DNA from: an uncultured Clostridium sp.
Lineage (GTDB): Bacteria; Bacillota; Clostridia; TANB77; CAG-508
Reading direction: 5' to 3'
Length of the DNA stretch: 64,000 bases
NCBI GenBank assembly: GCA_947364715.1
Contig: CANAUI010000001.1
Location: 1,157-65,156, forward strand
The translations under genes were made by a program, and so were the position numbers. The notes below the pieces were generated by a model that did no database searches, was not told where the DNA came from, and worked only from the letters and a program-made list of their open reading frames with translations. Positions within the stretch are counted from its first letter, which is position 1, and every line of letters starts with the position of its first letter. Positions 5,079 to 47,475 of the stretch are shown piece by piece.

Positions 5079-5888
5079 GTGAAATTAATGGAAATATGGA
5101 ATGTGGGAAATCGAATTGTTAATACATATATTTATCAAATAGAAGATGGATATATTATGATTGATACAGGATATGATAATGGGTTTAAAAAAGTATTAAA
5201 AAAAATGGAAAAAAATAATTTAAAACCTGAAAATATAAGATATATTTTCTTAACTCATGCCCATGATGACCATGCAGGTTTTATAAATGAGATTATGAAC
5301 AAATTTCCAAAAATAAAATTAATATGTAATAGTAAATCTATAGAGATTTTAAAAAAAGGTCAAAATCCTTTTGAAGGGGGATGTAGTAGTAAACTAGCTC
5401 TTTTCTTTTGCAATATAATGAAAATTTTTGGGAGAAGTAAACATCTTTTCCCAATAATTTCAGAAGAAAATTTAAAAAGAACTATTTCAATTAATGAGGC
5501 TAATAAAAATGAAATAGAAAAAATATTAAAAGGAAATGTTTATGATACTCCAGGTCATACTAAAGATTCCATTTCATTAATGCTTAATGATGGTAAGTTT
5601 TTTTGTGGGGATGCTTCAATGAATGGGTTACCTAGTATTAACAAAATAACAATCTGGATTGAAAATAAAAAAGAATATGTAGAATCTTGGAAAAAAATAA
5701 TTAGTATAAAACCATTAAAAATATATCCTGGACATGGGAAATCATTTAATTACAATTGCCTTGAAAATAAAATTAATAAATTAGATAAAGTAAAATTATT
5801 AAAATTAAGTGAAGATTCTTTACTTGAGCCATCTGTTCCGAGAGCAGAATTAGAAACAGAAACAAAAAAAGATGAATGGGAAAGATAA
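5079..5888 (+). CDS. MBL-fold metallo-hydrolase
   Basis: HxHxDH motif FLTHAHDDHAGF plus downstream His/Asp ligand residues (TPGHT, GDAS, PGHG). Confidence 0.8.
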   Translation: MKLMEIWNVGNRIVNTYIYQIEDGYIMIDTGYDNGFKKVLKKMEKNNLKPENIRYIFLTHAHDDHAGFINEIMNKFPKIKLICNSKSIEILKKGQNPFEGGCSSKLALFFCNIMKIFGRSKHLFPIISEENLKRTISINEANKNEIEKILKGNVYDTPGHTKDSISLMLNDGKFFCGDASMNGLPSINKITIWIENKKEYVESWKKIISIKPLKIYPGHGKSFNYNCLENKINKLDKVKLLKLSEDSLLEPSVPRAELETETKKDEWER

Positions 5889-6082: not shown

Positions 6083-7528
6083 ATGGATTTAATAGTAAAA
6101 GCAAAAAATATAGATTTAGAATATAATGGAAGACAAATTTTAAATATTGATAATTTAGAAATATATAACTATGATAAAATCGGAATAGTAGGAAAAAATG
6201 GTAGTGGCAAAACAACATTATTAAAAGTCTTATTAGGACAAATAGAATTAAAAACAGCAGAGATTAAAACTTATGGAAAAATATCATATATTCCACAATT
6301 AGAGCAAATAGATATAACCAACATAGAAGATAAATCTATATTAGGTAAATTAAATGTTCATAATGTAGAAGGTAATAATCTATCAGGAGGAGAAGAAACA
6401 AAATTAAAAATAGCAAAAGCATTATCAGAAAATAGTGATGGCATATTTGCAGATGAACCTACTTGTAATTTAGATAAAGACAGTATCGATTATATAACAA
6501 AAACATTAAAATATTATTCTGGAAGTGTAGTAGTAATCAGCCACGATAGATATTTTTTAGATGAAGTTGTAAATAAGATATGGGAAATTGAAAATGGCAA
6601 AATTACAGAATATTGGGGGAATTATACAGATTATATAGAACAAAAAGAACAAGAAAAGCAAACCCACTTAAAAAAATATGAACAATATATAAATGAAAAG
6701 CAAAGGCTAGAAAAAATAATTACTGAAAAACAAAAGCAAGCACAAAAAGTTGGAAAAAGTAAAAATCAAAAAAGTACAGAAAATGGTGGAAGATTAGCAC
6801 ATCAAAAATCAACAGGGAGTAAAGAAAAAGCACTTCATAAATCAGCAAAAGCAGTAGAAAAAAGAATAGAAGAGCTAGAAGAAATAAGTAAACCAATAAA
6901 AGAAAGGCAAATACATTTTAGAATTAGTGGTTCGCTTGAGATATATAATCCTGTTCCAATTATGAGTGATAATCTAAATAAAAAAATTGGTAATAAAATA
7001 ATATTTGAAGATGCAAAATTTAAAATACCACTTGGCAAAAAAGTAGCAATTACTGGAGCAAATGGAACTGGAAAAACCACATTAATAAAAATGATTTTAA
7101 ATAAAGAAACTGGAATAGAAATATCTCCCAAAGTACAAATTGGTTATTTTGCACAAAATGGATATAAGTTTGAAAAAGAAAAAAATGTTTTAGAGTTTTT
7201 AAAAGAAGAATCAGATTATCAGGTGTCAGAAATAAGAAGTATGATAGCAATGTTAGGATTAAACCAAAATGTAATTACTAGAAAAATGAAAACATTAAGT
7301 GGTGGAGAAATTGTAAAAATATTATTATGTAAAATGTTGCTTGGAAGATATAATGTACTAATTATGGATGAACCTAATAATTATTTAGATATACCAAGTA
7401 TAGAAGCATTAGAAAGCCTTATGAAACAATATAAAGGTACAATAATATTTATATCACATGATAAACGATTAGTACAAAATGTAGCAGATATTGTATATGA
7501 AATTAAAGATAATAAAATAATGGAATAA
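6083..7528 (+). CDS. ABC-F family ATPase (two ABC domains with a long charged linker; possible ARE-type ribosomal protection protein)
   Basis: Walker A GKNGSGKTTLLK and GANGTGKTTLIK. Signatures LSGGEETK and LSGGEIVK. About 80-aa Lys/Gln/Glu-rich interdomain linker. No transmembrane domain. Confidence 0.8.
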   Translation: MDLIVKAKNIDLEYNGRQILNIDNLEIYNYDKIGIVGKNGSGKTTLLKVLLGQIELKTAEIKTYGKISYIPQLEQIDITNIEDKSILGKLNVHNVEGNNLSGGEETKLKIAKALSENSDGIFADEPTCNLDKDSIDYITKTLKYYSGSVVVISHDRYFLDEVVNKIWEIENGKITEYWGNYTDYIEQKEQEKQTHLKKYEQYINEKQRLEKIITEKQKQAQKVGKSKNQKSTENGGRLAHQKSTGSKEKALHKSAKAVEKRIEELEEISKPIKERQIHFRISGSLEIYNPVPIMSDNLNKKIGNKIIFEDAKFKIPLGKKVAITGANGTGKTTLIKMILNKETGIEISPKVQIGYFAQNGYKFEKEKNVLEFLKEESDYQVSEIRSMIAMLGLNQNVITRKMKTLSGGEIVKILLCKMLLGRYNVLIMDEPNNYLDIPSIEALESLMKQYKGTIIFISHDKRLVQNVADIVYEIKDNKIME

Positions 7529-7662
7529 CATAACAATAAATTACAATTTTGAAAGGAAGTAATATATGGATTATCAAAAACATATACCATATTTATTAGA
7601 TAAAAACTTTAAAGAAAATGTAAGAAAATATAAAAGATTTATTTTTTGCCTTAATAAAAAAC

Positions 7663-7688
7663 CGTAGACTGGTACACCAGTCTACGGA
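7663..7688. terminator. GC-rich perfect hairpin (bidirectional terminator candidate)
   Basis: ccgtagactggt-acacc-agtctacgg between the convergent ABC-F and 7741..8232 genes. T-rich flank upstream on the plus strand. Confidence 0.55.
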
Positions 7689-7691
7689 AAT

Positions 7692-7705
7692 CTGTGGGAG
7701 ATACT
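7692..7705. repeat. left copy of a 14-bp perfect inverted repeat flanking the GC-rich cassette
   Basis: ctgtgggagatact is the exact reverse complement of 8258..8271 agtatctcccacag. Confidence 0.7.
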
Positions 7706-7740
7706 AACTATTTGTTACTTACTGTTGCTGTTTGCTGAAA

Positions 7741-8232
7741 TTAATAAATCCAGCAGTTAATGCGACCGGACCCAGGGGTATTGCCATTCCAGTTGATGAT
7801 GGAATAGTGAATGCGATAGGTTCCTGTCTGACCGTTAAGGAACTTGATGTTATGCCAGTTGTCCTTGTTGGACATAGTGATGTAATCACCAGCATTATCA
7901 AGTGTCCCCCATGCGAAAGTGCCATCCGGTCTGTAAACCTGAACTGCCACAGCATCATTGGAACCGAAGTTCTCAATGTTTAAAGTAAGCTGTGCAGTAG
8001 GCCAGCCCATGCCAGTTACATTGACATAGAAATCGCCGACGGTGCTTTCGCCAGAATTGTGCCAATGCTGACCATATCCACTCAGCGATCCGTAAGGAAC
8101 AATCCCACTGTCGCTCGCTTCAACGGCAACCACATTGGAAACGGGTTCTGCCTCTGCTGCAAACGCAGTAGTGCCACAAAGGCAGGTGAAAGCCATGGCT
8201 AACGCCATAATGATACCTAAATGTCTTTTCAT
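7741..8232 (-). CDS. secreted protein of unknown function, encoded in a compositionally foreign (~48% GC) cassette
   Basis: Likely start MKRHLGIIMALAMAFTCLCGTTAFAAEA (signal peptide) with AGGAGG RBS (8242..8247 rc). The track ORF extends to 8256. GC content far above the surroundings. Confidence 0.65.
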   Translation of the reverse strand: MKRHLGIIMALAMAFTCLCGTTAFAAEAEPVSNVVAVEASDSGIVPYGSLSGYGQHWHNSGESTVGDFYVNVTGMGWPTAQLTLNIENFGSNDAVAVQVYRPDGTFAWGTLDNAGDYITMSNKDNWHNIKFLNGQTGTYRIHYSIINWNGNTPGSGRINCWIY

Positions 8233-8257
8233 GATATTACCTCCTGTAATAGACACA

Positions 8258-8271
8258 AGTATCTCCCACAG
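8258..8271. repeat. right copy of the 14-bp inverted repeat
   Basis: agtatctcccacag, immediately upstream of the RBS of the 7741..8232 gene. Confidence 0.7.
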
Positions 8272-8447
8272 TTTTTTTTGCTTACCGAACGATTACAACC
8301 GTTCTTAATAAATAAGCATAGCATAAATTATACAACATATTTTTATAAAAGTAAAGTAAAAACACAAAAAATACGCAAAAAGATGTCGACAGAAATCGAC
8401 AAATAGCAGTGTTTTTTAGTTTTATATTTAGAAAGGGGGGCTAGATT

Positions 8448-9185
8448 GTGAATAATAAAGAAGATTGGGAAGAATTAGAAAAATGGCAAGAAAGAAGAAA
8501 AGAAGAACAAATGGAAAAGTTTAGAGTGGATTTTTCAGAAATAGCTAAAAAAAGAGAATACAAAGGAGTAAACACTATTGTAAAAGGAATGAAAATAGCA
8601 GGAAAAACAATTAAAATTGGTGGAATTATAACTATTATAATAGTTATAGCTATCGTTCTTTTGATTTTTGACTTAATTATTTCTAATATAAATGCAAAAA
8701 CAAATATAAAACCAAAAAAAACAATAGAAAATATGTATAATACAGAAGTTGATTTAATCTATCAAGACATAGATGAAAAAGAAAATGGCAAATATGTTTT
8801 TAAAGTATCAAATAATAACGAAATTAAATTCACAGCCATAAGAAAATTTGGAAGTTTAAGTGAAGATTATTCTGATAATTGTCATAAATATTACTTTGAA
8901 CGATGGGAAAGTAAAGAAAAAGAAAATTTTATAATAACTGAAAATAAAACAGAAGATATTTTAGACTATGATACATATATAGAAATAGATTCATATGAAG
9001 AACTAGAAAAAGCAATGGATATTATAAATAATTTTGTGAATTATTGTGGAAATAATTTTTCTGCTAATTGGAGAATTTATTTAAAAAAAGGAAATTACAT
9101 AATATATCCTTATCAACAAAGTGGAATATCTAAAGAGGAGGCAGTTAATAACGCAAAAGAATTATATAATAAATATTTAAAATAA
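8448..9185 (+). CDS. membrane protein (one central TM), unknown
   Basis: Hydrophobic stretch IGGIITIIIVIAIVLLIFDLII. Plausible RBS gaaagggggg upstream (start read as GTG). Confidence 0.5.
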   Translation: MNNKEDWEELEKWQERRKEEQMEKFRVDFSEIAKKREYKGVNTIVKGMKIAGKTIKIGGIITIIIVIAIVLLIFDLIISNINAKTNIKPKKTIENMYNTEVDLIYQDIDEKENGKYVFKVSNNNEIKFTAIRKFGSLSEDYSDNCHKYYFERWESKEKENFIITENKTEDILDYDTYIEIDSYEELEKAMDIINNFVNYCGNNFSANWRIYLKKGNYIIYPYQQSGISKEEAVNNAKELYNKYLK

Positions 9186-9398
9186 ATTTTGCAAAGAATG
9201 TAACGAAAATGAACTTGATTCGTCTTATATGTAAAGATATATAAAATACTGCATAACTCAAAATTTATTGCTAATGTATATAGATGATTCAGCTAGTATT
9301 TGATTTTTAGAGTATAAAAAAACATTTAAGAGAATACAAAAAATATACATAAACTAACTTGATATTTATTAAAGAATCTATTATAATACAAATAGAAA

Positions 9399-10091
9399 TT
9401 GGAGGATAAAATTATGGAAAAAGAAAAAATAAAATTATGGAAAATAATAGTTGCAATATTAGTAATATTATTAGTTATTTTTGCAATAAATACGATTAGA
9501 AAAGTTATAATATTTAATAATTTACAAGAAAAAATTAGCAAGTATGAAAAAAGTGAGAATATGTATTCTAAAATAGATTCAGAAAAGTCAATAACAGAAA
9601 GATTTATTAAAAATGATATAGATAAGTTAATAATAAAGTATAAAGATAAACCAATGACAGTTATTCAATTAAAAAATGGAAACGAATGTAAGAATTATAC
9701 CTTTTTTGAAGAAACTAAAAAAGTAACAGTAACTGATGTTAATAATATGGATGCCTTGAGAGTTACAAAAATAAATAATACCATTAACACAAATTCTTTT
9801 ATAGATAAACTTATAAAATGTATTACTTCAAAAGTTTCTACAGAAACAATAGATGGAAAAGAATATTATGTTATAGATGGAAAATTAAGCGGAAGTCAAT
9901 TAATGCTACAAAATGTTATATCAACGAAAGCATATATAGATAGAGAAACTGGATTAACAATGAAAATAATTGAGATCACAAAAGAAAACAATAATAAAAA
10001 AGAATATATTACTAATTATGAGTACAATTTTGACTCTATTACAGATGATGAAATTAGTGAACCTAATACTATTGGTTATGAAGAAAATTAA
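9399..10091 (+). CDS. membrane-anchored protein, unknown
   Basis: N-terminal TM WKIIVAILVILLVIFAI. GGAGG RBS at ~9402. Confidence 0.55.
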   Translation: MEDKIMEKEKIKLWKIIVAILVILLVIFAINTIRKVIIFNNLQEKISKYEKSENMYSKIDSEKSITERFIKNDIDKLIIKYKDKPMTVIQLKNGNECKNYTFFEETKKVTVTDVNNMDALRVTKINNTINTNSFIDKLIKCITSKVSTETIDGKEYYVIDGKLSGSQLMLQNVISTKAYIDRETGLTMKIIEITKENNNKKEYITNYEYNFDSITDDEISEPNTIGYEEN

Positions 10092-10214
10092 TATAAATAG
10101 CATTAATAGGCAATAAAGTTTTATTGCCTATTTTTTACAATATCATTGAGAAAGCAGTATAAATTATGATAAAATTAGAGCAAGTACAGAGCTTATAAAA
10201 AGGGGAAATAACAA

Positions 10215-12410
10215 ATGTTAAAATTAGAAAGTGTATCAAAGATTTATTATAATAAAGGAATGATTGCAACAGGAATAACAAAAGTAAATTTAGAATTAAA
10301 ATTAGGAGAATTTGTTGTAATTACAGGAGAATCTGGAAGTGGAAAAAGTACACTCTTAAATGTAATATCTGGTATTGATAGTTATGAAGAGGGTGAAATG
10401 TATGTAAATGGCAAAGAAACAAGTCATTATACAGAAAAAGATTTTGAAGAATATAGAAGAAAATATATAGCAAATATATTTCAAAACTTTAATTTGATAA
10501 ATAGTTATACTGTATATCAAAACATAGAACTGATACTATTGTTAAAAGGCGAAAAGAAAAGTAATATAAAGAAAAAAATATTAGATATAATAAATAAAGT
10601 AGGTTTAACTAAATTCAAAAATACAAAGGTTTCAAAATTATCAGGAGGGCAAAAACAAAGAGTAGCAATAGCAAGAGCAATAATAAAAGATACTCCTATT
10701 ATAGTGGCAGATGAGCCAACAGGTAATTTAGATACGAAATCAGCAGAGGAAATTATAGAATTATTAAGAAAGGTTGCAAAAGATAAATTAGTAGTTATGG
10801 TAACACATAACATAGAACAAGTAGAACAATATGCCACAAAAATTATAAAAATGCATGATGGTAGAATTGTAAGTTGTAATGAAATAAAGAAAATTAAAGA
10901 AAATAAAGATATAATGGAATGCAAATATAATGAAATAACAGTGTTTAATAAAATAAGATTAGGAATTAGAAATACATTTAACATATTTTCAAAATTTACA
11001 TTATTGTTTATAGTTTTTCTATTTATGAGCATAGCATTTTTAACAGAGTACGCAAGTTTTCAACTTGCAGAAAACGAAGCTGATGAAAGTGGGTATAGCA
11101 TAGGATTTAGAGATATTTCTGATAACAGAATTTTGATAAAAAAACAGAACCAATCAGCATTTACCAATGAAGATTATGCAAGAATAAAAGGAATATCTAA
11201 TATTGATTATATAGTTGAAGATGATTTGTTTATAGATTGTAGTTTTTCTTTAAATAGAGATGATATGAGTTTTTATGGGAATATTTTAGATATAAAGAAT
11301 TTTAGAGGAAATATAGATTTGGGAAGAAAGCCAAATAATGACAATGAAATTATTTTAAGAATAGGAAGAAAGCACTTTTATATAACGAATAGAATAGATG
11401 AAGTTCTGGGTAAAACATTTTCAATAATGAATCCAAGTGATAATGAACAAATAAAGGATTTGACAATTGTAGGAATACAATATAGTAAAGACGATAATGA
11501 TTATAACCCTAAATTTTATTCGCAAAGTGAAACATTAAGAGAATTAAGAAGTTTAGTAAATAAAAATTATAGTGATTTAAAAATACTTTTTAATAATAAA
11601 TATGTTCAATATAATATAGAGCCTAATGATAATGTAAGTAAAGGATGTGTAATATTAGATGATGACTTAAAGTATCAATTTAAAAATTATAAAATTATAA
11701 ATCAACCTGTGGATATTAGTGCAAGTAATATTTATTATGAGGAAAAGATAAGTTTAAAAGTTTCTAATACTTTTACAAAATCTAATTTCAAAAGATTAAC
11801 TGGCTTAACAAAGTATGAGAATTATAGAAATACATTATTTATAAATAAAGAAGATTATAATTCTTTATTTAATAAATCTTCATATCAATCTAGTGTATAT
11901 GTAAAAAATAGTGAGATTATTGAAGAAACAATGCTAGAATTAAATAATATTGGATTAAAAGCTAAAAAGGTAACAGATTATAAGGTTGATGATTCTGCAA
12001 CCTACAAACAAATAATAAAAATAATAAAAGTAGTAGTAACGATAGTTGTAATTGTAGTATTGTTTTTTATATCATATTTGATAGTAAGGATAATTTTAAA
12101 ATCAAGAAATGTATATTTTACAACATTGAGAATGTTGGGGGCAAGTTTTAAAAACATAAAGAGAATTTTAGATATAGAATTATTTATAAATTCAAGCTTA
12201 TCATACATATCAGTTTTATTGTTTATACATCTAGTAAAAACAAATATAGTAAATGTTGATTTTATAGAACAGTTAGTAAACTATTTATCATTGAGAGAGT
12301 ATATAATAATGTATATTATTTTGTTTTTTACTGTAAAATTATTATCCAGAAAATTTGCAAAAAAAATTTTTAAAAGTACAGCAATGAATATATACAATGA
12401 GGAGGTGTAA
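10215..12410 (+). CDS. ABC transporter, fused ATPase + FtsX/MacB-like permease
   Basis: Walker A GESGSGKST, signature LSGGQKQRVAIARA, Walker B IIVADEPTGNLD. C-terminal multi-TM region with a large extracytoplasmic loop. Confidence 0.8.
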   Translation: MLKLESVSKIYYNKGMIATGITKVNLELKLGEFVVITGESGSGKSTLLNVISGIDSYEEGEMYVNGKETSHYTEKDFEEYRRKYIANIFQNFNLINSYTVYQNIELILLLKGEKKSNIKKKILDIINKVGLTKFKNTKVSKLSGGQKQRVAIARAIIKDTPIIVADEPTGNLDTKSAEEIIELLRKVAKDKLVVMVTHNIEQVEQYATKIIKMHDGRIVSCNEIKKIKENKDIMECKYNEITVFNKIRLGIRNTFNIFSKFTLLFIVFLFMSIAFLTEYASFQLAENEADESGYSIGFRDISDNRILIKKQNQSAFTNEDYARIKGISNIDYIVEDDLFIDCSFSLNRDDMSFYGNILDIKNFRGNIDLGRKPNNDNEIILRIGRKHFYITNRIDEVLGKTFSIMNPSDNEQIKDLTIVGIQYSKDDNDYNPKFYSQSETLRELRSLVNKNYSDLKILFNNKYVQYNIEPNDNVSKGCVILDDDLKYQFKNYKIINQPVDISASNIYYEEKISLKVSNTFTKSNFKRLTGLTKYENYRNTLFINKEDYNSLFNKSSYQSSVYVKNSEIIEETMLELNNIGLKAKKVTDYKVDDSATYKQIIKIIKVVVTIVVIVVLFFISYLIVRIILKSRNVYFTTLRMLGASFKNIKRILDIELFINSSLSYISVLLFIHLVKTNIVNVDFIEQLVNYLSLREYIIMYIILFFTVKLLSRKFAKKIFKSTAMNIYNEEV

Positions 12411-12413
12411 TAT

Positions 12414-14867
12414 ATGGTAAAATTAGAAAAAGTTAATAAATACTTTAATAGAAGAAAACCAAATCAGATACATATTATAAATAATACATCTCTTGAACTA
12501 GAAAAAACAGGTTTAGTAGCAATTTTGGGACATTCTGGAAGTGGAAAGACTACTATATTGAATGCAATAGGTGGATTAGATAAAGTAAATAAGGGAAAAA
12601 TTTTTGTAAATGGTAAGAAAATTACAAAAAGAAGTTCTTATGTAGTTGATAAAATCAGAAACTTAAATATTGGATATATATTTCAAGATTACAAATTGTT
12701 AGATAATTTGTCTGTTTATGAAAATGTAGCTATTTCTTTAAAAATGATAGGAATAAAAAATAAAAAAGAAATAGAAAAAAGAGTAAAGTATGTTTTAGAA
12801 GCAGTTAAAATGTATAGATATAGAAATAGACCTGCTAGAATGTTATCTGGAGGGGAAAAACAAAGAGTAGCAATAGCAAGAGCAATAGTAAAAAACCCAA
12901 GCATAGTAATTGCTGATGAGCCAACAGGTAATTTAGATAGTAAAAATTCATTAGAGATAATGAATATAATAAAAGCATTATCCAAAGATAAATTAGTAAT
13001 TTTAGTAACACACGAAATTGATTTAGCAAACTTCTACGCTTCAAGAATAATTAAGTTACAAGATGGAAAAATTATAGAAGATTATGAAAATAAGCCAAAA
13101 GAATCTTTGGAATATAGACTTGATAATAAGCTATACTTGAAAGATTTTCAAAGTAAAGATACACTAAATAAAAATAAAATTAATGTGGATTTATATACAA
13201 ATAATGAAAACAATGAGGTAAATATTGAATTAGCTATTAAAGATGGAAATATATATATAAAATCTAAAAGCCAAAAAATAGAAGTTATAGATGAAAATTC
13301 TGCGATAGAATTAGTAAATGAACATTATAAAAAGTTAGATAAAAGTATTTATGATGATTATGATTATAATTTAGAAAAAATAATAGACAAAAGGTATAAG
13401 ACTAAATATACTTCTATATATGGAATTATGAAATCTATAATAAATGGATTTAAAAGAATTTCTAATTATACAATATTAAGGAAGATATTATTGATAGGTT
13501 TTTTTGCATCAAGTATGTTTATAGTATATTCAGTAAGTAATATTGCAGGAACACTTGATATAAAAGATACTGATTTTATGGTTGTAGATAAAAACTATTT
13601 ACAAGTCGATATGGGAAATGTAAATGTTGAAAATTTTTTGAGATATGAACAATTAGAAAATATAGACTATATATTACCTGGGGATAGTAATATTAGCTTT
13701 AAAATAAAATTTGATGACTACTATCAATTATCTAGATATTCATTTGAATTATCAGGTTCTTTAGTTAGTATAGATACAATTAATCAAAATGATATAGTTA
13801 AAGGAAGATTACCAGAAGATAATTATGAAATTGTAGTTGATAAAAGAGTTATTGAACACATGGTAAATAGTGATTCAGGTATGATGAGAAACATGGGGAT
13901 AAAGAGTGAAGAAGAATTACTAAACAAAACTATATCAATGAATAATATGAAAGATTTTGTAATAGTTGGTATTGCTGATACAAAAGCATTGTCAATATTT
14001 ACGAGTAGAGAGATGTTTATAAATTTATTAAACAATTCAACCAAATCTGATGGACTAATGGGTATGTATATCCCAACGAGTAATGAAGAAACAGAAAGTG
14101 CAGTAATGGATTACAATTTATATTTAGACGATATTGTAATAACAAAGGGAAGATTACCAGAAAATGATTATGAAGTAATTGTAAACAAATCTAATCAATA
14201 TGATATGAAATTGAATAAGAAAATAAAAACAAAAGTAAATAATAATGAATTAAAAGTAGTAGGATATTATGATAGTAAAAGTAATATACAAGCATATTTA
14301 GTTAATAATAATACTGTAAAATATGATGTAGTTAATAAAAGCAATGGTTTAATGATTTATCCTAAAAACAAACAAGATATCATTAATAAATTTAAAAACG
14401 AGTATAATCTAAATGTAATTGATAGATATGAAAGAGATAAGGAAAATTATTTAAGTAAAAAAGAAAAATCTATAAGAAGTTCTATTATTTTTGCAACAAT
14501 AATACTTTCAATTTCATTAATAGAAATATACCTAATGATGAGATCGTCTTTTTTATCAAGAATAAAAGAAATAGGAATATATAGAGCAATAGGAGTCAAA
14601 AAGGCAGATATTTATAGAATGTTTTTAGGGGAAATTCTAGTTATAACAACTTTCAGTAGTATGTTAGGAATAATTCTTATGGCATATATATTAAATGGAA
14701 TATCTAATATTCCTTATGTAGATAGAATGTTTATTATAAATAACAAGACAGTAGGAATTAGTATTTTAATAGTTTATTTATTTAATATTATAATTGGACT
14801 AATGCCTTTACATAGAGTTCTTAAAAAGACACCTGCTCAAATATTATCAAGATACGACCTAGAATAA
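12414..14867 (+). CDS. ABC transporter, fused ATPase + FtsX/MacB-like permease (second paralogue)
   Basis: GHSGSGKTT, LSGGEKQRVAIARA, IVIADEPTGNLD. C-terminal TM helices. Start overlaps the previous gene (translational coupling). Confidence 0.8.
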   Translation: MVKLEKVNKYFNRRKPNQIHIINNTSLELEKTGLVAILGHSGSGKTTILNAIGGLDKVNKGKIFVNGKKITKRSSYVVDKIRNLNIGYIFQDYKLLDNLSVYENVAISLKMIGIKNKKEIEKRVKYVLEAVKMYRYRNRPARMLSGGEKQRVAIARAIVKNPSIVIADEPTGNLDSKNSLEIMNIIKALSKDKLVILVTHEIDLANFYASRIIKLQDGKIIEDYENKPKESLEYRLDNKLYLKDFQSKDTLNKNKINVDLYTNNENNEVNIELAIKDGNIYIKSKSQKIEVIDENSAIELVNEHYKKLDKSIYDDYDYNLEKIIDKRYKTKYTSIYGIMKSIINGFKRISNYTILRKILLIGFFASSMFIVYSVSNIAGTLDIKDTDFMVVDKNYLQVDMGNVNVENFLRYEQLENIDYILPGDSNISFKIKFDDYYQLSRYSFELSGSLVSIDTINQNDIVKGRLPEDNYEIVVDKRVIEHMVNSDSGMMRNMGIKSEEELLNKTISMNNMKDFVIVGIADTKALSIFTSREMFINLLNNSTKSDGLMGMYIPTSNEETESAVMDYNLYLDDIVITKGRLPENDYEVIVNKSNQYDMKLNKKIKTKVNNNELKVVGYYDSKSNIQAYLVNNNTVKYDVVNKSNGLMIYPKNKQDIINKFKNEYNLNVIDRYERDKENYLSKKEKSIRSSIIFATIILSISLIEIYLMMRSSFLSRIKEIGIYRAIGVKKADIYRMFLGEILVITTFSSMLGIILMAYILNGISNIPYVDRMFIINNKTVGISILIVYLFNIIIGLMPLHRVLKKTPAQILSRYDLE

Positions 14868-17360: not shown

Positions 17361-17624
17361 CTCATCAAGAGTAATATTAAGAGCCAAAGAAAATGCTTTA
17401 GCTTCAAAATCTTTCACAAGTCTTTTATTATGTTCAATTTCATATATATCAGCAATGAACATAGTAACACCTAGTAATTCCATTTTGCGACATAAATCTG
17501 GTTGAGAAAGACCTTGCATTTCACGATACTTTTTAACATTTGTGCCAATAATGTTTAAATTGTTATTAAATCTTCTAATTACACCCATTGCAAAAGCTCC
17601 TTTCTCATAAAATTTCTCTAGCAT
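17325..17624 (-). CDS. XRE-family HTH transcriptional regulator
   Basis: IGTNVKKYREMQGLSQPDLCRKMELLGV, canonical Cro/C1 HTH. Confidence 0.7.
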   Translation of the reverse strand: MLEKFYEKGAFAMGVIRRFNNNLNIIGTNVKKYREMQGLSQPDLCRKMELLGVTMFIADIYEIEHNKRLVKDFEAKAFSLALNITLDELYDNTNKLFEH

Positions 17625-17765
17625 ATTTTATAATATTTAAAGGGCTTACCCTACAAACTGGGTTTTATTTTTCGCAAAAAATATAAAAATTATACAAGAA
17701 AAGATAAAGGGATTAAATTTAGTTAGAACTAATAAATAAAAAATATAAATAGGAGGATAATAATT

Positions 17766-18970: not shown

Positions 18971-19139
18971 CATATTCCCTCCTCTCATAATAGTATTTTG
19001 TTATATTAGTAATTTACCAAAAAGAAAGAATAAAGTCAATAAATAGAAGATTTTTCGACAAAGAATTTTAAATTTAATATTTGAACAAAATAAAAAAATA
19101 TGCTAGAATGATAAATAGATTATAGAAAAGAGGCAAAAT

Positions 19140-22117: not shown

Positions 22118-23788
22118 TTAAGCCACTTTAATTTCACTATAGCTTTTATCAATTTCTTTCTTTTTATCTAACACATATTTTTCTAATTCTGTGCCAGTTA
22201 TATTTCCAATTAATTTGTCATCTTTATCATAAATTTCATATTCCTTATCATCAACTAAAAATAGTGTGTAATACTGGTGTTTTTCGTTAAATGCAGTATA
22301 TTTCTTAGGAATATGTATTTTTTCTTTAGTATAAGGTAAATTAATACAAAAGCAATCATTATTAGATTTTTTATAATCAATATGATTGCCTCCAAATTTT
22401 ATATTGTGGATGAAAAGATTGCTTTTTGAAAGTTTTTCTTCTTTAATTGTGTCTAAATGATTAAGTTCTCTTTGCAATTCTAATACTGCTTTTTTTGTCT
22501 TATTAATCTCTATTCTCTTTGGTAAAGAATCTTTTATGATTTGCTTTGCCTCATCTATTGAATTTATCTTTAATTCATTTTGTAAACTTAAAAATATTTC
22601 TACATCTACAGGTAAAGTATAATCTGGATTTACTTCTTTATAAGACATTGCATATTGATAAACCTTAAATAACCTAATATAATCTTGTGCTTTTTCCGTT
22701 CTGTCAATAATCCTATTAAAAGTATCTTTGTTCTTTTTTAACATTTGATTTAAAGATTTTATTTGTTCTCTTTTATTATTTATTTGGATTTCTATATCTT
22801 CAAAGGATTTTATATTATATTTATCCAGGTATTCTAATTGTTGTTTTAATTTGTAATATCTCTTTATCTCTTGATACCTTGTTTTTTGATACTCACTATA
22901 TATTTTACCTTCTGTAGATAACATACTTTTTTCTAAAGCTACTTTTGATTTATTTATTCTATTTATTAATTCATTATTAAATTTATTTTTAGAAACTCTT
23001 ATTTCTTCTAGTACAAGATTGTTTTGCGATTTATAATAGTTATATAAATTTTGTTCAGTATATCTTGAATCAATAGTGGATAATCTTGCATACTTTTGCA
23101 TACCTGTAGTTTTAACTGAAATATGTTTCCCTCTTTTTACACTATATCCAAGTATAGATAGCTCATCTAACATTTGCTCTATACTACTACATTTTAAAAG
23201 TAAATCCTCTACATCTTCTTTGATTTTTTGTTTCCAAGTTTGTTCTTTATATTGATGGTAATAATTTTTATTTTTAACTTTACTAAAGGTTCTCTTAGGC
23301 ATAATATAACAACCATACTCACTTGCAATTTTATCACTTACATCACTTAATCCATAAAGCCCTTCTTTTGGATTAGCCAGTCTATCATCTAACTTTTTAC
23401 CATTTAGATTTATAGAGTTTATCGCTATATGGTTATGAATATGACCTCGATCTATATGTGTACTAATAACACATTCAAAATCTGGATATAATTCTTCACA
23501 AAGTCTTTTACCTATTTCATTAGCTTGCTCTGGTGTTATATTATCGTTTGGTGAAAAACTTTGTATAACATGATAGGCTACTCTATTACCTCTCATATCA
23601 AACTTTTTTTGCGTCCTTGTAAAATTCAATAAAGCAGATTCTACTTTACAATTTATAGATGATGTAGCAGCGACTTTCTCACCATCATTTTTTTCATCTA
23701 AAATATATGAAATTAATTCGTTTGGAGAATTATAATGAGGCATCCTTTTTGTATAAGGCATATTATTCTTCCTCCATTTGTTTCTCAC
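22118..23788 (-). CDS. conjugative relaxase (MobP/MobA-VirD2-like nuclease domain)
   Basis: N-terminal YHVIQSF... and 3-His motif STHIDRGHIHNHIAINSINLNG. Long coiled-coil C-terminus. Confidence 0.7.
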   Translation of the reverse strand: MRNKWRKNNMPYTKRMPHYNSPNELISYILDEKNDGEKVAATSSINCKVESALLNFTRTQKKFDMRGNRVAYHVIQSFSPNDNITPEQANEIGKRLCEELYPDFECVISTHIDRGHIHNHIAINSINLNGKKLDDRLANPKEGLYGLSDVSDKIASEYGCYIMPKRTFSKVKNKNYYHQYKEQTWKQKIKEDVEDLLLKCSSIEQMLDELSILGYSVKRGKHISVKTTGMQKYARLSTIDSRYTEQNLYNYYKSQNNLVLEEIRVSKNKFNNELINRINKSKVALEKSMLSTEGKIYSEYQKTRYQEIKRYYKLKQQLEYLDKYNIKSFEDIEIQINNKREQIKSLNQMLKKNKDTFNRIIDRTEKAQDYIRLFKVYQYAMSYKEVNPDYTLPVDVEIFLSLQNELKINSIDEAKQIIKDSLPKRIEINKTKKAVLELQRELNHLDTIKEEKLSKSNLFIHNIKFGGNHIDYKKSNNDCFCINLPYTKEKIHIPKKYTAFNEKHQYYTLFLVDDKEYEIYDKDDKLIGNITGTELEKYVLDKKKEIDKSYSEIKVA

Positions 23789-45496: not shown

Positions 45497-47475
45497 TTAA
45501 GCAACTTTTAAATCTTCTAATTGTATTGCACCAGACTTTAAAAGTTCTTTTACTTCTTGTTTATCAACCTTTTCAATTTTTGAATTTTGAATAGGTTTAA
45601 CAAATTGTAATCCCAAATCATATAACAATTTATAATTGAAATTTTCTTGATATTCCAATTCTTGCTTATGATCGTATAACTTATTGTTATTATTTGCCCA
45701 AGGTTCGTATAAATCCGAATAATTTGGGTGTTCATTTAAGTTGTATAATTTGGAGTAAAAAGCTCCAACTGTAGATATAAAAATAATACAGTAACCTTTC
45801 TGCATTTTGGATAATTCATCTAAAGTTGCCAACTCTCTACCTACAATATCCCAATTTGTGCTACTAGAACCTTGTTTTGAGAAAGTTCTACCTGTGCTTT
45901 TCTTATACCAAGTCTTTTTACCGAGTAAAGCCACAATATATTCAAGTGTTTCTTTACTATTACTACCAAGAAATAGGGTAGTATCAACACAATCCAAAAC
46001 TGATTCCCAACTGTCTTTATATTTCTTTTTTAATTGACTTAGAGATTGTAAACCGAATTGTTATTCCGTACATTTAAGCCTCTAAGATAAGCCAGTTCTT
46101 CTACAAATCGAGGTATTTCTCCGTAACTGAGCCCATTCATCCATATAAATTTCCAAAGGTGTAACAAGACTTCCACCAAGTCTTTTAGCATTTTCATCTA
46201 TCATAGCAAATACCTGTGTGTAGAAAATACTTGCCAAGAAATTGAAAGTAGAATCGCTGGGTTTTGTAATAATAAAGTAAGCTACTTTTCCATTTCCTAT
46301 ATGTTTTCCAGTATCTGCATTGATTTTCTGTAGAATAGGTGAGTTATCATTAATAGGCATACCAATTCTTTCTAGTTCCATATCATCAGTATTAGTCAAA
46401 TCTGATATTTCCTTAATGTTAAAGGCTGCGAGCCTTGCAGTCGCAACCATGATGATGGTCGACATCATCTTTGGAGCAGAGGCAGCAACCTTGAAATGCT
46501 TATATTGTTTTACTCCAATGTGGTCTGGTTCTTCTCTAGCCCAATTATCAAAAAGTTTATCTAAAGGAGAAACACCTGTTGAATCTGGATTAGATAAACG
46601 AATTAATTTCAAAATAGTTGAAAAATTTTGATGTGGTTTATCATAATGCCTAATAGTATAGTAAAACAATGCTTGAAGGTAAATCATCTCTGATTTTTCC
46701 CAGAAGGGATCTCCACTTGTATTTTCAATATTTTCACTCTTCGTATTAACCATTAAAGTATTAATTAAGGTCATTACATCATCTTCTTGTATTTTATGAT
46801 TAGGATTTTCATTTCCTATTATTTCTTCAAAAGTAGGTAATTCTTTTATATATACAAAAGGATTATAATGATTAGATTTTGATTTTTCATCCAAATTTAG
46901 AACCTTAATTGTATAACCTTTTTTCTTCAATGAATATCCACAATCTCTAAGCAGTTCTCCGTTTAGGATCTGTTACTATTATAGTACCAGTCGCATTTAG
47001 GATGTTAGGCTTAAAATAGTAACGAGATTTACCGAGTACCAGGTCTACCAAGTAATATTACATGCCTATTCATTCCACTCTTTTTCATATTTTTAGAAAT
47101 GAACTCTGTTTGAGATAAAATCATATTGTTTTCAAAAACTTTATCTCTTTTGTTTTCAATATCTTTTGAAGTTCTCCATTCAGCAGAACCATAAGTGTTC
47201 TCTTGCACATTTCTTTTGTTTTGCATACGATAAGTTTCATATATCATAAGCATAAAAAAAGACACTCCCGCAGATATTGCAAGATTTTTACTTGTAATAT
47301 CTATTGGAGTGTTTAATTTATATATATTATTAAGAGCAATATTGAAAAATTCTAAATCCCAAATTCCATTATTACTATTTACTAGAGTTGTTACTCTAAG
47401 CATATAATAGAATATAATTACAAATGTTATAAATAAAAACAAGTATGGTGGCTTTTTATTTTTCTTTACTAACAT
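45497..47475 (-). pseudogene. type IV coupling protein (VirD4/TraG family) split into three ORFs by frameshifts
   Basis: N-terminal TM helices...NRHVILLGRPGT (P-loop) then frameshift. ...NHYNPF...GDPFWE...YMDEWAQL then frameshift. ...TLFLGSNSKETLEYIVALLGKKTW... Confidence 0.75.

Follow-up and report, generated by a model that had tools for sequence, protein, structure and literature searches.

The window analysed here is a stretch of 64,000 nucleotides from an uncultured Clostridium sp. (contig CANAUI010000001.1; all coordinates are those of the stretch), and the subject is a small GC-rich gene on its minus strand, which encodes a secreted protein, together with the inverted repeat around its coding sequence (CDS). 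An earlier note, made from the letters alone, had regarded this segment as a recently acquired mobile cassette bounded by the repeat, and had offered pairing of the transcript's 5' untranslated region (UTR) with its 3' UTR as an alternative. Its description of the segment was largely borne out. The GC content rises from 0.21-0.26 to 0.41-0.54 between ~7700 and 8300, against a window average of 0.26, and the segment holds one gene. The open reading frame (ORF) runs from the ATG at 8232 to the stop at 7741 and encodes a precursor of 163 aa, the N-terminus of which carries a hydrophobic helix and an AFA/AE motif, typical of a Sec signal. As the note had it, the protein ends in ...INCWIY and is of no known family, with no match in Pfam (including PF04151) or NCBIfam. 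The inverted repeat was also confirmed: CTGTGGGAGATACT lies at 7692-7705 and its exact reverse complement at 8258-8271, and the match extends to 18 nt at 94% with one mismatch (7688-7705 / 8258-8275). Allowing up to two mismatches, the 14-mer has three matches in the window, compared with 0.17 expected, and none of 100 shuffles reached three. By itself the repeat is only moderately unusual: inverted-repeat pairs of at least 14 nt whose copies lie within 1.5 kb of each other occur 23 times in the AT-rich window, and this pair is the only one that is not AT-only low-complexity sequence. Its weight lies in its conservation.

For comparison, we used 20 distinct homologous loci with both UTRs, all from AT-rich gut Clostridia and with 38-93% protein identity. 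The features of the unit and of its surroundings are listed in the table below. Because a promoter lies upstream and a terminator downstream, the predicted transcript contains both arms of the repeat: the 5' UTR holds one, and the 3' UTR holds the other, 4 nt before the terminator stem. The TTTACT/TATAAT pattern was found at the same place in the homologues, and phased T-tracts, along with TGTCG/TGTCA repeats in part, precede the -35 box in most of the loci. The upstream region may be a curved or UP-like element; alternatively, it may serve as an operator, shared with the divergent gene for a 245-aa membrane protein. The GC-rich perfect hairpin of the earlier note is present, although at 7662-7687 rather than 7663-7688. 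Eleven pairs, of which 7 are G-C, enclose a 4-nt loop, and since TTTTTT comes next on the minus strand, the hairpin is the gene's intrinsic terminator, conserved at the same place (CCGTAG.../CCGCAG...) in the homologues. Within the leader, the stem-loop begins a few nt past the predicted transcription start and appears in the minimum free energy (MFE) structure of the full mRNA and in the leader folds of most homologues. The P1 stem keeps its sequence and was paired in 84.7% of cells; compensatory changes are found in the variable P2 stem (ACGGUU/AUCGUU, AUGAUU/AUCAUU, ACAAUU/AUUGUU, GUGGCU/GCUAC). In the MFE structure, the Shine-Dalgarno (SD) sequence sits in the loop of a short hairpin formed by GUGUCU (8251-8256) and AGACAU (8221-8226).

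Two further elements adjoin the arms. The last A's of the A-run between the stem-loop and the 5' arm pair with the U's after the 3' arm, so that the outer three positions of the helix are A-U in 19/20 loci; the remainder of the run could pair with the U-tail of the terminator. On the other side, stop codons in all three frames directly precede the 3' arm. Considering that stop codons are common in AT-rich DNA, this is notable only as a conserved motif and for its position: (TAA)GTAACTAA, in RNA (UAA)GUAACUAA, lies 15-17 nt from the arm core in 11/20 loci, with variants in the others. The motif may act as a ribosome barrier that keeps ribosomes off the helix. An Rfam search of 7500-8500 with E up to 10 returned chance-level matches only (NsiR4, 15.6 bits; EF0605_EF0606, 14.5 bits), so no known RNA family is represented. 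Taken as a whole, 8355..7655 of the minus strand is likely one self-contained transcription unit for a small secreted protein.

Table. Features of the secreted-protein unit, its neighbours and the surrounding element-like region
Feature	Coordinates	Strand	Remarks
Promoter-upstream region	8356..8401	-	TGTCGA repeats (TGTCGATTTCTGTCGACA, 8384-8401) and T-tracts phased ~10-11 nt
Sigma-70-type promoter (predicted)	8327..8355	-	-35 TTTACT, 17-nt spacer, -10 TATAAT; 10/12 matches, best site of the region
Two-tier 5'-terminal stem-loop (predicted)	8279..8318	-	P1 UGCUUAUU/GGUAAGCA; P2 GAACGGU-UGUA-AUCGUUC
A-run between 5' stem-loop and 5' arm	8272..8278	-	columns nearly invariant A in 20 loci
5' arm	8258..8271	-	CUGUGGGAGAUACU in mRNA; 26-39 nt upstream of ATG, 12 nt upstream of SD
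SD sequence AGGAGG	8240..8245	-	7 nt before ATG; GGAGG nearly invariant in 20 loci
CDS, secreted-protein precursor	7741..8232	-	ORF, 163 aa
3' UTR stop motif	7706..7724	-	UAAGUAACAAAUAGUUAG; UAAGUAAC...UAG.UAG; stops in all three frames directly before 3' arm
3' arm	7692..7705	-	AGUAUCUCCCACAG in mRNA; then AUUU (7688-7691), then terminator
Intrinsic terminator	7655..7687	-	stem-loop 7687..7662 and U-run 7661..7655
245-aa single-pass membrane protein	8448-9185	+	homologue beside gene in 10/20 loci
230-aa membrane protein, single-pass	9399-10091	+	homologue beside gene in 6/20 loci
731-aa ATP-binding cassette (ABC) ATPase fusion	10215-12410	+	ABC pair in 9/20 loci
817-aa ABC ATPase-FtsX fusion	12414-14867	+	ABC pair in 9/20 loci
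ABC-F gene, Msr-family ribosomal-protection (antibiotic resistance) type	6083-7528	+	NF000168 676.9 bits (cut-off 680); ribo_prot_ABC_F 515.9 (cut-off 380)
MobA/VirD2 relaxase	22118-23761	-	
Type IV secretion system coupling-protein fragment	46082-46774	-	
SpaA-type pilins	52596-56337	-	

The position of the arms and their complementarity are conserved, and their sequence is not. In 20/20 loci, the 5' UTR contains a segment complementary to one in the 3' UTR that adjoins the terminator, with divergent arm sequences, and the 5' arm starts 34-46 nt before the ATG in each of them, right after the A-run behind the 5' stem-loop. The arms of the window, CUGUGGGAGAUACU and AGUAUCUCCCACAG, match exactly. 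Compensatory changes were found at L001 (...GGGGGAU... with ...AUCCCCC...) and L007 (...GAGAGAU... with ...AUCUCUC...), and two G.U pairs at L012 (AAUAGUGGAAAAUGC with GUAUUUUCUACUAUU). At L018 (AAUGGUAAGAGCUU with AAGCUCUUACCAUU), L028 (AAAACUACAGGGGU with ACCCCUGUAGUUUU) and L029 (AAAAAUUAUGCAAG with CUUGCAUAAUUUUU) the arms are unrelated in sequence and the pairing is kept. Besides CUGUGGGAGAUACU and AAUGGUAAGAGCUU, the divergent 5' arms include AUAGUGGAAAAUGC, CUACAGGGGU and UUAUGCAAG. Since the arms cannot be aligned by sequence, position-anchored 18-nt extracts of the 20 loci were used for the formal count. Paired cells made up 87.8%, compared with 59.7% in shuffles and 38-47% in slid registers, and all 18 pairs (18/18) showed changes on both sides. 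There were 107 compensatory cells against 34 expected, and the covariation score was 0.76, a value reached by 0/500 shuffles, versus 0.23.

Three checks independent of the register gave the same picture. When the 5' UTR and 3' UTR were compared without a fixed register, the mean best-helix score was 35.7 for cognate pairs, and non-cognate pairs with divergent arms scored 22.9 +/- 4.5. When the 673-nt transcript of the window was folded without constraints, the MFE structure held the 5' stem-loop, the 14-bp helix and the terminator together, and in 20/20 homologous transcripts the MFE structure pairs 10-18 nt of the 5' arm with the region of the 3' arm, across 550-650 nt. Among cells that are not Watson-Crick pairs on the sense strand, G.U exceeded A.C (16 vs 5, p=0.027), indicating pairing in RNA, on the mRNA strand, which would not be expected for DNA sites. 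The duplex energy is -25 kcal/mol in the window and averages -20 kcal/mol in the family, and the fold of the whole window mRNA has a z of -8.2. Comparative evidence, covariation joined by thermodynamic prediction, thus shows the 5' arm as the probable partner of the 3' arm in the mRNA. The alternative offered by the earlier note, pairing of the two UTRs, is strongly supported by the covariation, the G.U excess and the MFE folds, and we consider it likely that the inverted repeat is an RNA element rather than a DNA element.

The closest known case is hbs of B. subtilis, where the pairing partners are a 14-nt segment just downstream of the 5' hairpin and a fully complementary one that immediately precedes the terminator; the free energy is -19 kcal/mol (Braun, Durand & Condon 2017, PMC5737220). 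Mutants in a single arm of hbs show faster RNase Y cleavage of the leader or faster 3' decay, and the compensatory double mutant behaves as wild type (PMC5737220). Structure probing together with compensatory mutants proved that pairing (PMC5737220). Like hbs, the unit described here is a short monocistronic mRNA of a Firmicute with an arm of ~14 nt below a 5' hairpin and above a strong SD, and with its partner just upstream of an intrinsic terminator; the duplex energies are of a similar size. It differs in encoding a secreted beta-sandwich protein instead of a nucleoid protein, in its GC-enriched and well-folded CDS, in its three-frame stop motif, and in that the evidence for its pairing is comparative and not experimental. 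Whereas the 3' UTR of hbs is not conserved among orthologues according to a review (PMC7821165), the predicted helix here is conserved and covarying down to 38% protein identity. A second likeness concerns the 5' end. The leaders of ermC and aprE and the 5' UTR of ompA are examples of 5'-terminal stabiliser stem-loops and of stable mRNAs for abundant proteins. The unit resembles them in its stem-loop a few nt from the predicted 5' end and in its strong SD, features expected to hinder 5'-end-dependent decay; in those leaders the 5' element protects alone, whereas here it would be joined to the 3' end by the covarying helix.

By analogy with hbs, the helix would close the coding region into a loop and join the 5' stem-loop to the terminator hairpin. 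The predicted 5' end would be buried in the two-tier stem-loop, and helix, stem-loop and terminator together would leave no single-stranded 5' end, 3' end or leader, so that the mRNA would be shielded from RNase J, RNase Y and 3' exonucleases and might become long-lived and highly expressed. Signs of high expression are the promoter with 10/12 matches, the AGGAGG SD, the phased T-tracts upstream, the strong terminator, the z of -8.2 for the fold of the whole mRNA and a CDS that is more stable than permutations of its synonymous codons. The role of the helix is probably RNase protection and the high, stable expression of the message for the secreted protein, and we regard this explanation as a whole, a UTR-paired and RNase-shielded transcription unit, as likely.

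Several points weigh against this explanation. The stabilising function is drawn from the analogy with a single characterised mRNA, and the transcription start is predicted by a consensus scan only. In the formal count, the register of each extract was picked by best pairing near the terminator, and G.U cells were counted among the paired ones; both choices lean towards structure. For this reason the three register-independent checks were added, and the register-free test and the MFE predictions mitigate the bias. RNAalifold on a plain sequence alignment of full transcripts recovered only 4 pairs of the helix, and on MAFFT alignments of the leaders it returned no consensus structure; this poor recovery is explained by the arms of divergent subgroups, which do not align by sequence. 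The P1 stem shows little covariation. Finally, the signal of extra structure in the coding region (below) is moderate and comes from related sequences, and one unrelated control gene of the MBL fold (5088-5888) reaches a z of -3.8. Apart from these points, RNAduplex on long UTR pieces paired everything and gave no discrimination, and covariation within the CDS was too sparse to call.

The GC island requires its own explanation. The ORF has a GC content of 0.476 and a third-position GC (GC3) of 0.50, and is the sole outlier of 44, the 43 other ORFs of at least 150 aa having GC3 values of 0.09-0.26. At 19 loci with flanks of 24-30% GC, the gene has a GC of 0.34-0.48, with first and second positions (GC1/GC2) mostly at ~0.40-0.52 and GC3 at 0.20-0.50, so that elevated GC is a property of the whole gene family. 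GC1 and GC2 are high because of the amino-acid composition of the protein, in which G, A, W and T abound and K, E and I are scarce. The third positions have less A (0.13, against a background of 0.46) and more C (0.32 against 0.055), with T at 0.37 against 0.40. The CDS was more stable than dinucleotide shuffles in 12/12 family members (z -1.3 to -4.9; window -4.2), and more stable than permutations of synonymous codons in 7/7 (z -1.1 to -3.4, mean -2.3; window -3.4), compared with a mean z of -0.55 in 12 neighbouring genes. At least part of the high GC seems tied to an unusually well-folded coding region. Translational selection was rejected as the cause of the high GC3, because the other genes of the window do not exceed 0.26 and the bias includes CAG, AAG, GCG, CGC and TCC, which are not expected as preferred codons in AT-rich clostridia.

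One explanation of the island is recent or repeated transfer out of GC-richer Firmicutes, without selection on the mRNA, which would make the UTR helix an independent feature of an imported unit. The codon usage resembles that of a moderate-GC organism (CAG 4/4, with ATC, GGC and TCC frequent and ATA 0), a distant homologue with 40% identity (L030) lies in a contig of 47.7% GC, and the GC3 range of 0.20-0.50 in the family is as expected for differing amelioration. In addition, the window and L001, two close strains, differ at 40% of four-fold sites in the secreted-protein gene but at 9% in the adjacent ABC gene, indicating that the allele was exchanged, and both the locus of the window and the copy at L032 lie in regions resembling a conjugative element. 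On the other side, 19/20 loci with measurable flanks (L030 counted) lie in DNA of 24-30% GC, and in all 19 the GC3 of the gene is above the 0.13 typical of the other genes of the window, even at 38-50% protein identity. Polarised synonymous changes in the W lineage show no A/T bias (2-9 GC>AT vs 4-8 AT>GC), third positions lose A specifically and keep T, which is not a simple GC shift, and the synonymous codons are arranged to fold better than permutations. We consider transfer a real possibility, while leaning somewhat against it. The claim of recent acquisition in the earlier note therefore holds in part: horizontal exchange between close strains and an element-like region are found, but the high GC is family-wide in AT-rich hosts.

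A farther-reaching reading would extend selection to the whole message, as an 'armoured' messenger in which the ends are tied by the covarying helix, stray ribosomes are stopped by the three-frame motif, and selection for RNase resistance has driven the CDS to high GC, A-poor third positions and extra pairing. If so, the island would arise as GC does in rRNA and tRNA genes, and not from foreignness. We put this forward tentatively and rather doubt it in this full form. Transfer from GC-richer donors and selection on mRNA structure both stand as candidate causes of the GC.

The long-range helix might also act as a translational regulator rather than as a stabiliser, and two versions were considered. 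In the first, as in icaR, the 3' UTR would block initiation and create a substrate for RNase III; in the second, a sensor of completeness, synthesis of the 3' end would be needed to free the ribosome-binding site (RBS), because part of the 5' arm could otherwise pair with codons 6-8. A perfect duplex of 14-18 bp is a potential RNase III substrate, a point in favour of such regulation. In the W clade, the 5' arm has an alternative partner in the CDS: its GAUAC(UU) is complementary to (AG)GUAUC at +14..+21, a pairing that would enclose the RBS; in the window this alternative hairpin, at 8221-8262, joins GAUACUU of the 3' half of the 5' arm to AGGUAUC of codons 6-8 and encloses the SD and the AUG. 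One pair of compensatory changes is known for it (GAUGC:GCAUC in L001 and L036). Precedents exist in icaR and RNAIII (PMC7821165). In S. aureus, icaR pairs its 5' UTR with its 3' UTR (Ruiz de los Mozos et al. 2013, PMC3868564); there a UCCCC motif masks the SD, prevents translation and sets off decay by RNase III. In the present unit, by contrast, the 5' arm ends 12 nt upstream of the AGGAGG and leaves it uncovered, the arms of most homologues are not anti-SD-like, and the predicted accessibility of the RBS does not depend on the helix: the probability of being unpaired from SD to AUG changes from 0.45 to 0.49 when the 3' arm and terminator are removed. An icaR-type anti-SD 3' UTR was rejected on these grounds. 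Across the family, RBS accessibility changed in the predicted direction at 6/20 loci, which is not significant, and the pairing of arms with the CDS was no better for cognate than for non-cognate combinations (16.2 vs 15.2). The accessibility calculations and this cognate test gave no support to the completeness sensor, or RBS-opening switch, and a regulatory role of the helix in translation appears improbable overall.

At the DNA level, the arms could be the ends of an inverton, in which a site-specific recombinase flips the segment between them and thereby cuts the CDS off from its promoter; the arms would be kept identical by recombination with each other, which could mimic covariation. Gut bacteria carry many invertible segments flanked by inverted repeats, the arms enclose the SD and CDS with the promoter outside, and they co-evolve. 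The CDS has, however, the same orientation relative to promoter, 5' stem-loop and terminator in 20/20 loci, as judged from assembled contigs, where a minority orientation could show only in reads. Imperfect positions are mostly G.U on the sense strand, and bulges in the helix are tolerated (L010, L016), both of which would be meaningless for DNA. The positions of the arms coincide with those of the hbs RNA interaction, and no recombinase gene is consistently adjacent among the homologous loci. An inversion switch is thus highly improbable.

There remains the miniature mobile cassette of the earlier note, with the arms as terminal inverted repeats (TIRs) for a transposase acting in trans and the GC-rich gene as a recent passenger between the ABC-F gene and the ABC cluster. 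An exact 14-nt repeat around a single gene of foreign-looking composition resembles a miniature inverted-repeat transposable element (MITE) or the passenger gene of an insertion sequence (IS), the gene occurs in several different genomic contexts, and the window resembles a conjugative element. A TIR recognised by a protein would keep its sequence, whereas these arms lie inside the transcription unit and diverge among homologues while staying complementary, G.U pairs included. Among unrelated contexts (L007, L031, L032), homology extends from 7654-7657 to 8337-8381, and beyond both arms (7654 to 8373/8381), by 38 nt on one side and ~100 nt on the other. This block runs from the end of the terminator T-run to just upstream of the -35 box, its ends matching terminator and promoter, indicating that what is shared is the whole transcription unit and not the part bounded by the repeat. 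No direct repeat or target-site duplication, for which the note had suggested looking outside the repeats, adjoins the arms or the ends of the block; the single nearby direct repeat (7650-7667 / 8304-8321, 83%) is internal to the unit. A search for the bounded unit elsewhere gave one copy in the 64-kb window and one locus in the matching metagenome-assembled genome (MAG), and among the ORFs of the window there is no transposase between or beside the arms. The earlier note had held that arms belonging to a conserved UTR structure in orthologues would argue against mobility, and such a structure was found at 20/20 loci. In near-identical strains (L003-L006; 9 contigs from several samples), a 550-bp deletion of 7504..8053 at a GAAxT microhomology joins 7503 to 8054, end points unrelated to the arms; it removes the 3' half of the secreted-protein gene and the end of the ABC-F gene and leaves a 98-aa chimeric ORF (P0028), indicating that the secreted-protein gene is dispensable in some strains. 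With arms that are not unit termini and not conserved in sequence, no target duplication, no transposase and a single copy, an element of the IS or MITE type was rejected and the cassette is hardly credible.

The protein itself gives few clues to function. A word-indexed search found 29 homologues, all unnamed, and an exhaustive search with a hidden Markov model (HMM) found 140 homologue clusters, nearly all stand-alone proteins of 140-170 aa; some long repeat proteins matched by the family HMM carry PPC or GBD domains. The C-terminus SGRINCWIY is identical in 28/29 aligned sequences, P0029 having V for I. In the AlphaFold2 model (mean predicted local distance difference test, pLDDT, 84.5; >90 from residue 50 on), the mature domain is a confidently predicted beta-sandwich. 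Foldseek returned weak matches (E ~1e-3, template modelling score 0.36-0.41) to beta-jelly-roll C-domains of subtilases, the furin P-domain and GOLD, with 3afg and 5fax among the best. An identical protein is present in a MAG labelled 'uncultured Clostridium sp.' (L020, CANBHY010000001.1), where a single locus was found, and the remaining matches come from gut MAGs labelled 'uncultured Clostridia bacterium'. Neither megablast of the segment nor tblastn of the protein had a match in plasmid and phage collections, and a scan of viral contigs found no relative. At L024, a homologue at 267-761 is a pseudogene with an in-frame stop, and the helix between its UTRs shows two mismatches side by side, which would fit decay of the helix after the death of the gene.

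The link to the membrane-protein and ABC genes proposed in the earlier note is real and conserved (table); the neighbours at 8448..14867 are usually divergent from the secreted-protein gene. Both ABC proteins have ATPase domains of FtsE/LolD/MacB type. Among NCBIfam models, TIGR03608 ('putative bacteriocin export ABC transporter', lactococcin 972 exporter subfamily) ranked first for the 731-aa protein, and FtsE, slightly ahead of TIGR03608, for the 817-aa protein, each below its cut-off; the TIGR03608 scores were 201 and 196 bits, compared with a cut-off of 254.85, and FtsE, LolD and DevA scored about equally. As in lactococcin 972 loci, a small Sec-type secreted beta-rich protein adjoins MacB/FtsX-type ABC proteins. 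Unlike them, the locus has no bacteriocin family match and no seven-transmembrane immunity protein, and the secreted protein is twice the size. A lactococcin 972-type system was rejected, as the secreted protein had no NCBIfam match and TIGR03608 stayed below its cut-off. For the bacteriocin-like toxin with an export/immunity system that the earlier note had suggested, the conserved linkage speaks in favour, and the lack of a match to any bacteriocin family speaks against. As a low-confidence guess, the product may be a binding or effector protein, abundant outside the cell, with a function tied to the ABC/FtsX system.

The 245-aa protein is 64% identical between the window and L001 (5062-5799), compared with 97% for the adjacent 731-aa ABC protein. 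This hyperdivergence fits allelic replacement or diversifying selection, for example on a determinant of specificity or immunity. The 297-kb L020 contig stops ~200 bp upstream of the ATG, about where the 245-aa gene starts, which suggests that strain heterogeneity broke the assembly there. At three further loci, the secreted-protein gene adjoins an ECF-type sigma factor with a zf-HC2 anti-sigma factor (L016, 4481-5771), a small zf-HC2 ORF (L001, 4837-5001) or a sigma-70 region-4 protein (L032, 3377-3793), which hints at dedicated transcriptional control in part of the family.

Judged from its gene content, the window as a whole looks like a conjugative element. Genes of such an element occupy the minus strand at 20700-56400 (relaxase, methylases, coupling-protein fragment, pilins), with C5 and N6 DNA methylases and an LPD1 polyvalent protein within the same interval, and the near-identical contig L003 runs past the left end of the window into a tyrosine integrase. 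Because of these genes, the integrase and the adjacent ABC-F resistance gene, it is plausible that the locus moves horizontally as cargo of larger elements and by allelic exchange, and not by means of its own inverted repeat. The window contains another inverted repeat at 17617-17637 / 19087-19107 (core TCTAGCATATTT / AAATATGCTAGA), the copies of which lie 1449 nt apart around small ORFs; it may be due to chance or may be another long-range element.

Pairing between the 5' UTR and the 3' UTR is known for few bacterial mRNAs, namely hbs, icaR and RNAIII/hld, and whether the mechanism extends to other genes was left open in a 2021 review (PMC7821165). No Rfam family, and no paper in the literature searched, describes the unit reported here. 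By comparative criteria, it is a predicted and comparatively well supported member of this small class of long-range interactions, with hbs as the closest. It also gives reason for caution in the scanning of genomes: not every GC-rich single gene with a flanking inverted repeat in an AT-rich genome is a mobile cassette. Should the signal in the coding region prove sound, it would show that the base composition of a protein-coding gene can be reshaped by selection on mRNA structure. The natural compensatory mutations across ~20 lineages would provide ready variants for studying end-to-end pairing in the mRNA decay of Firmicutes.

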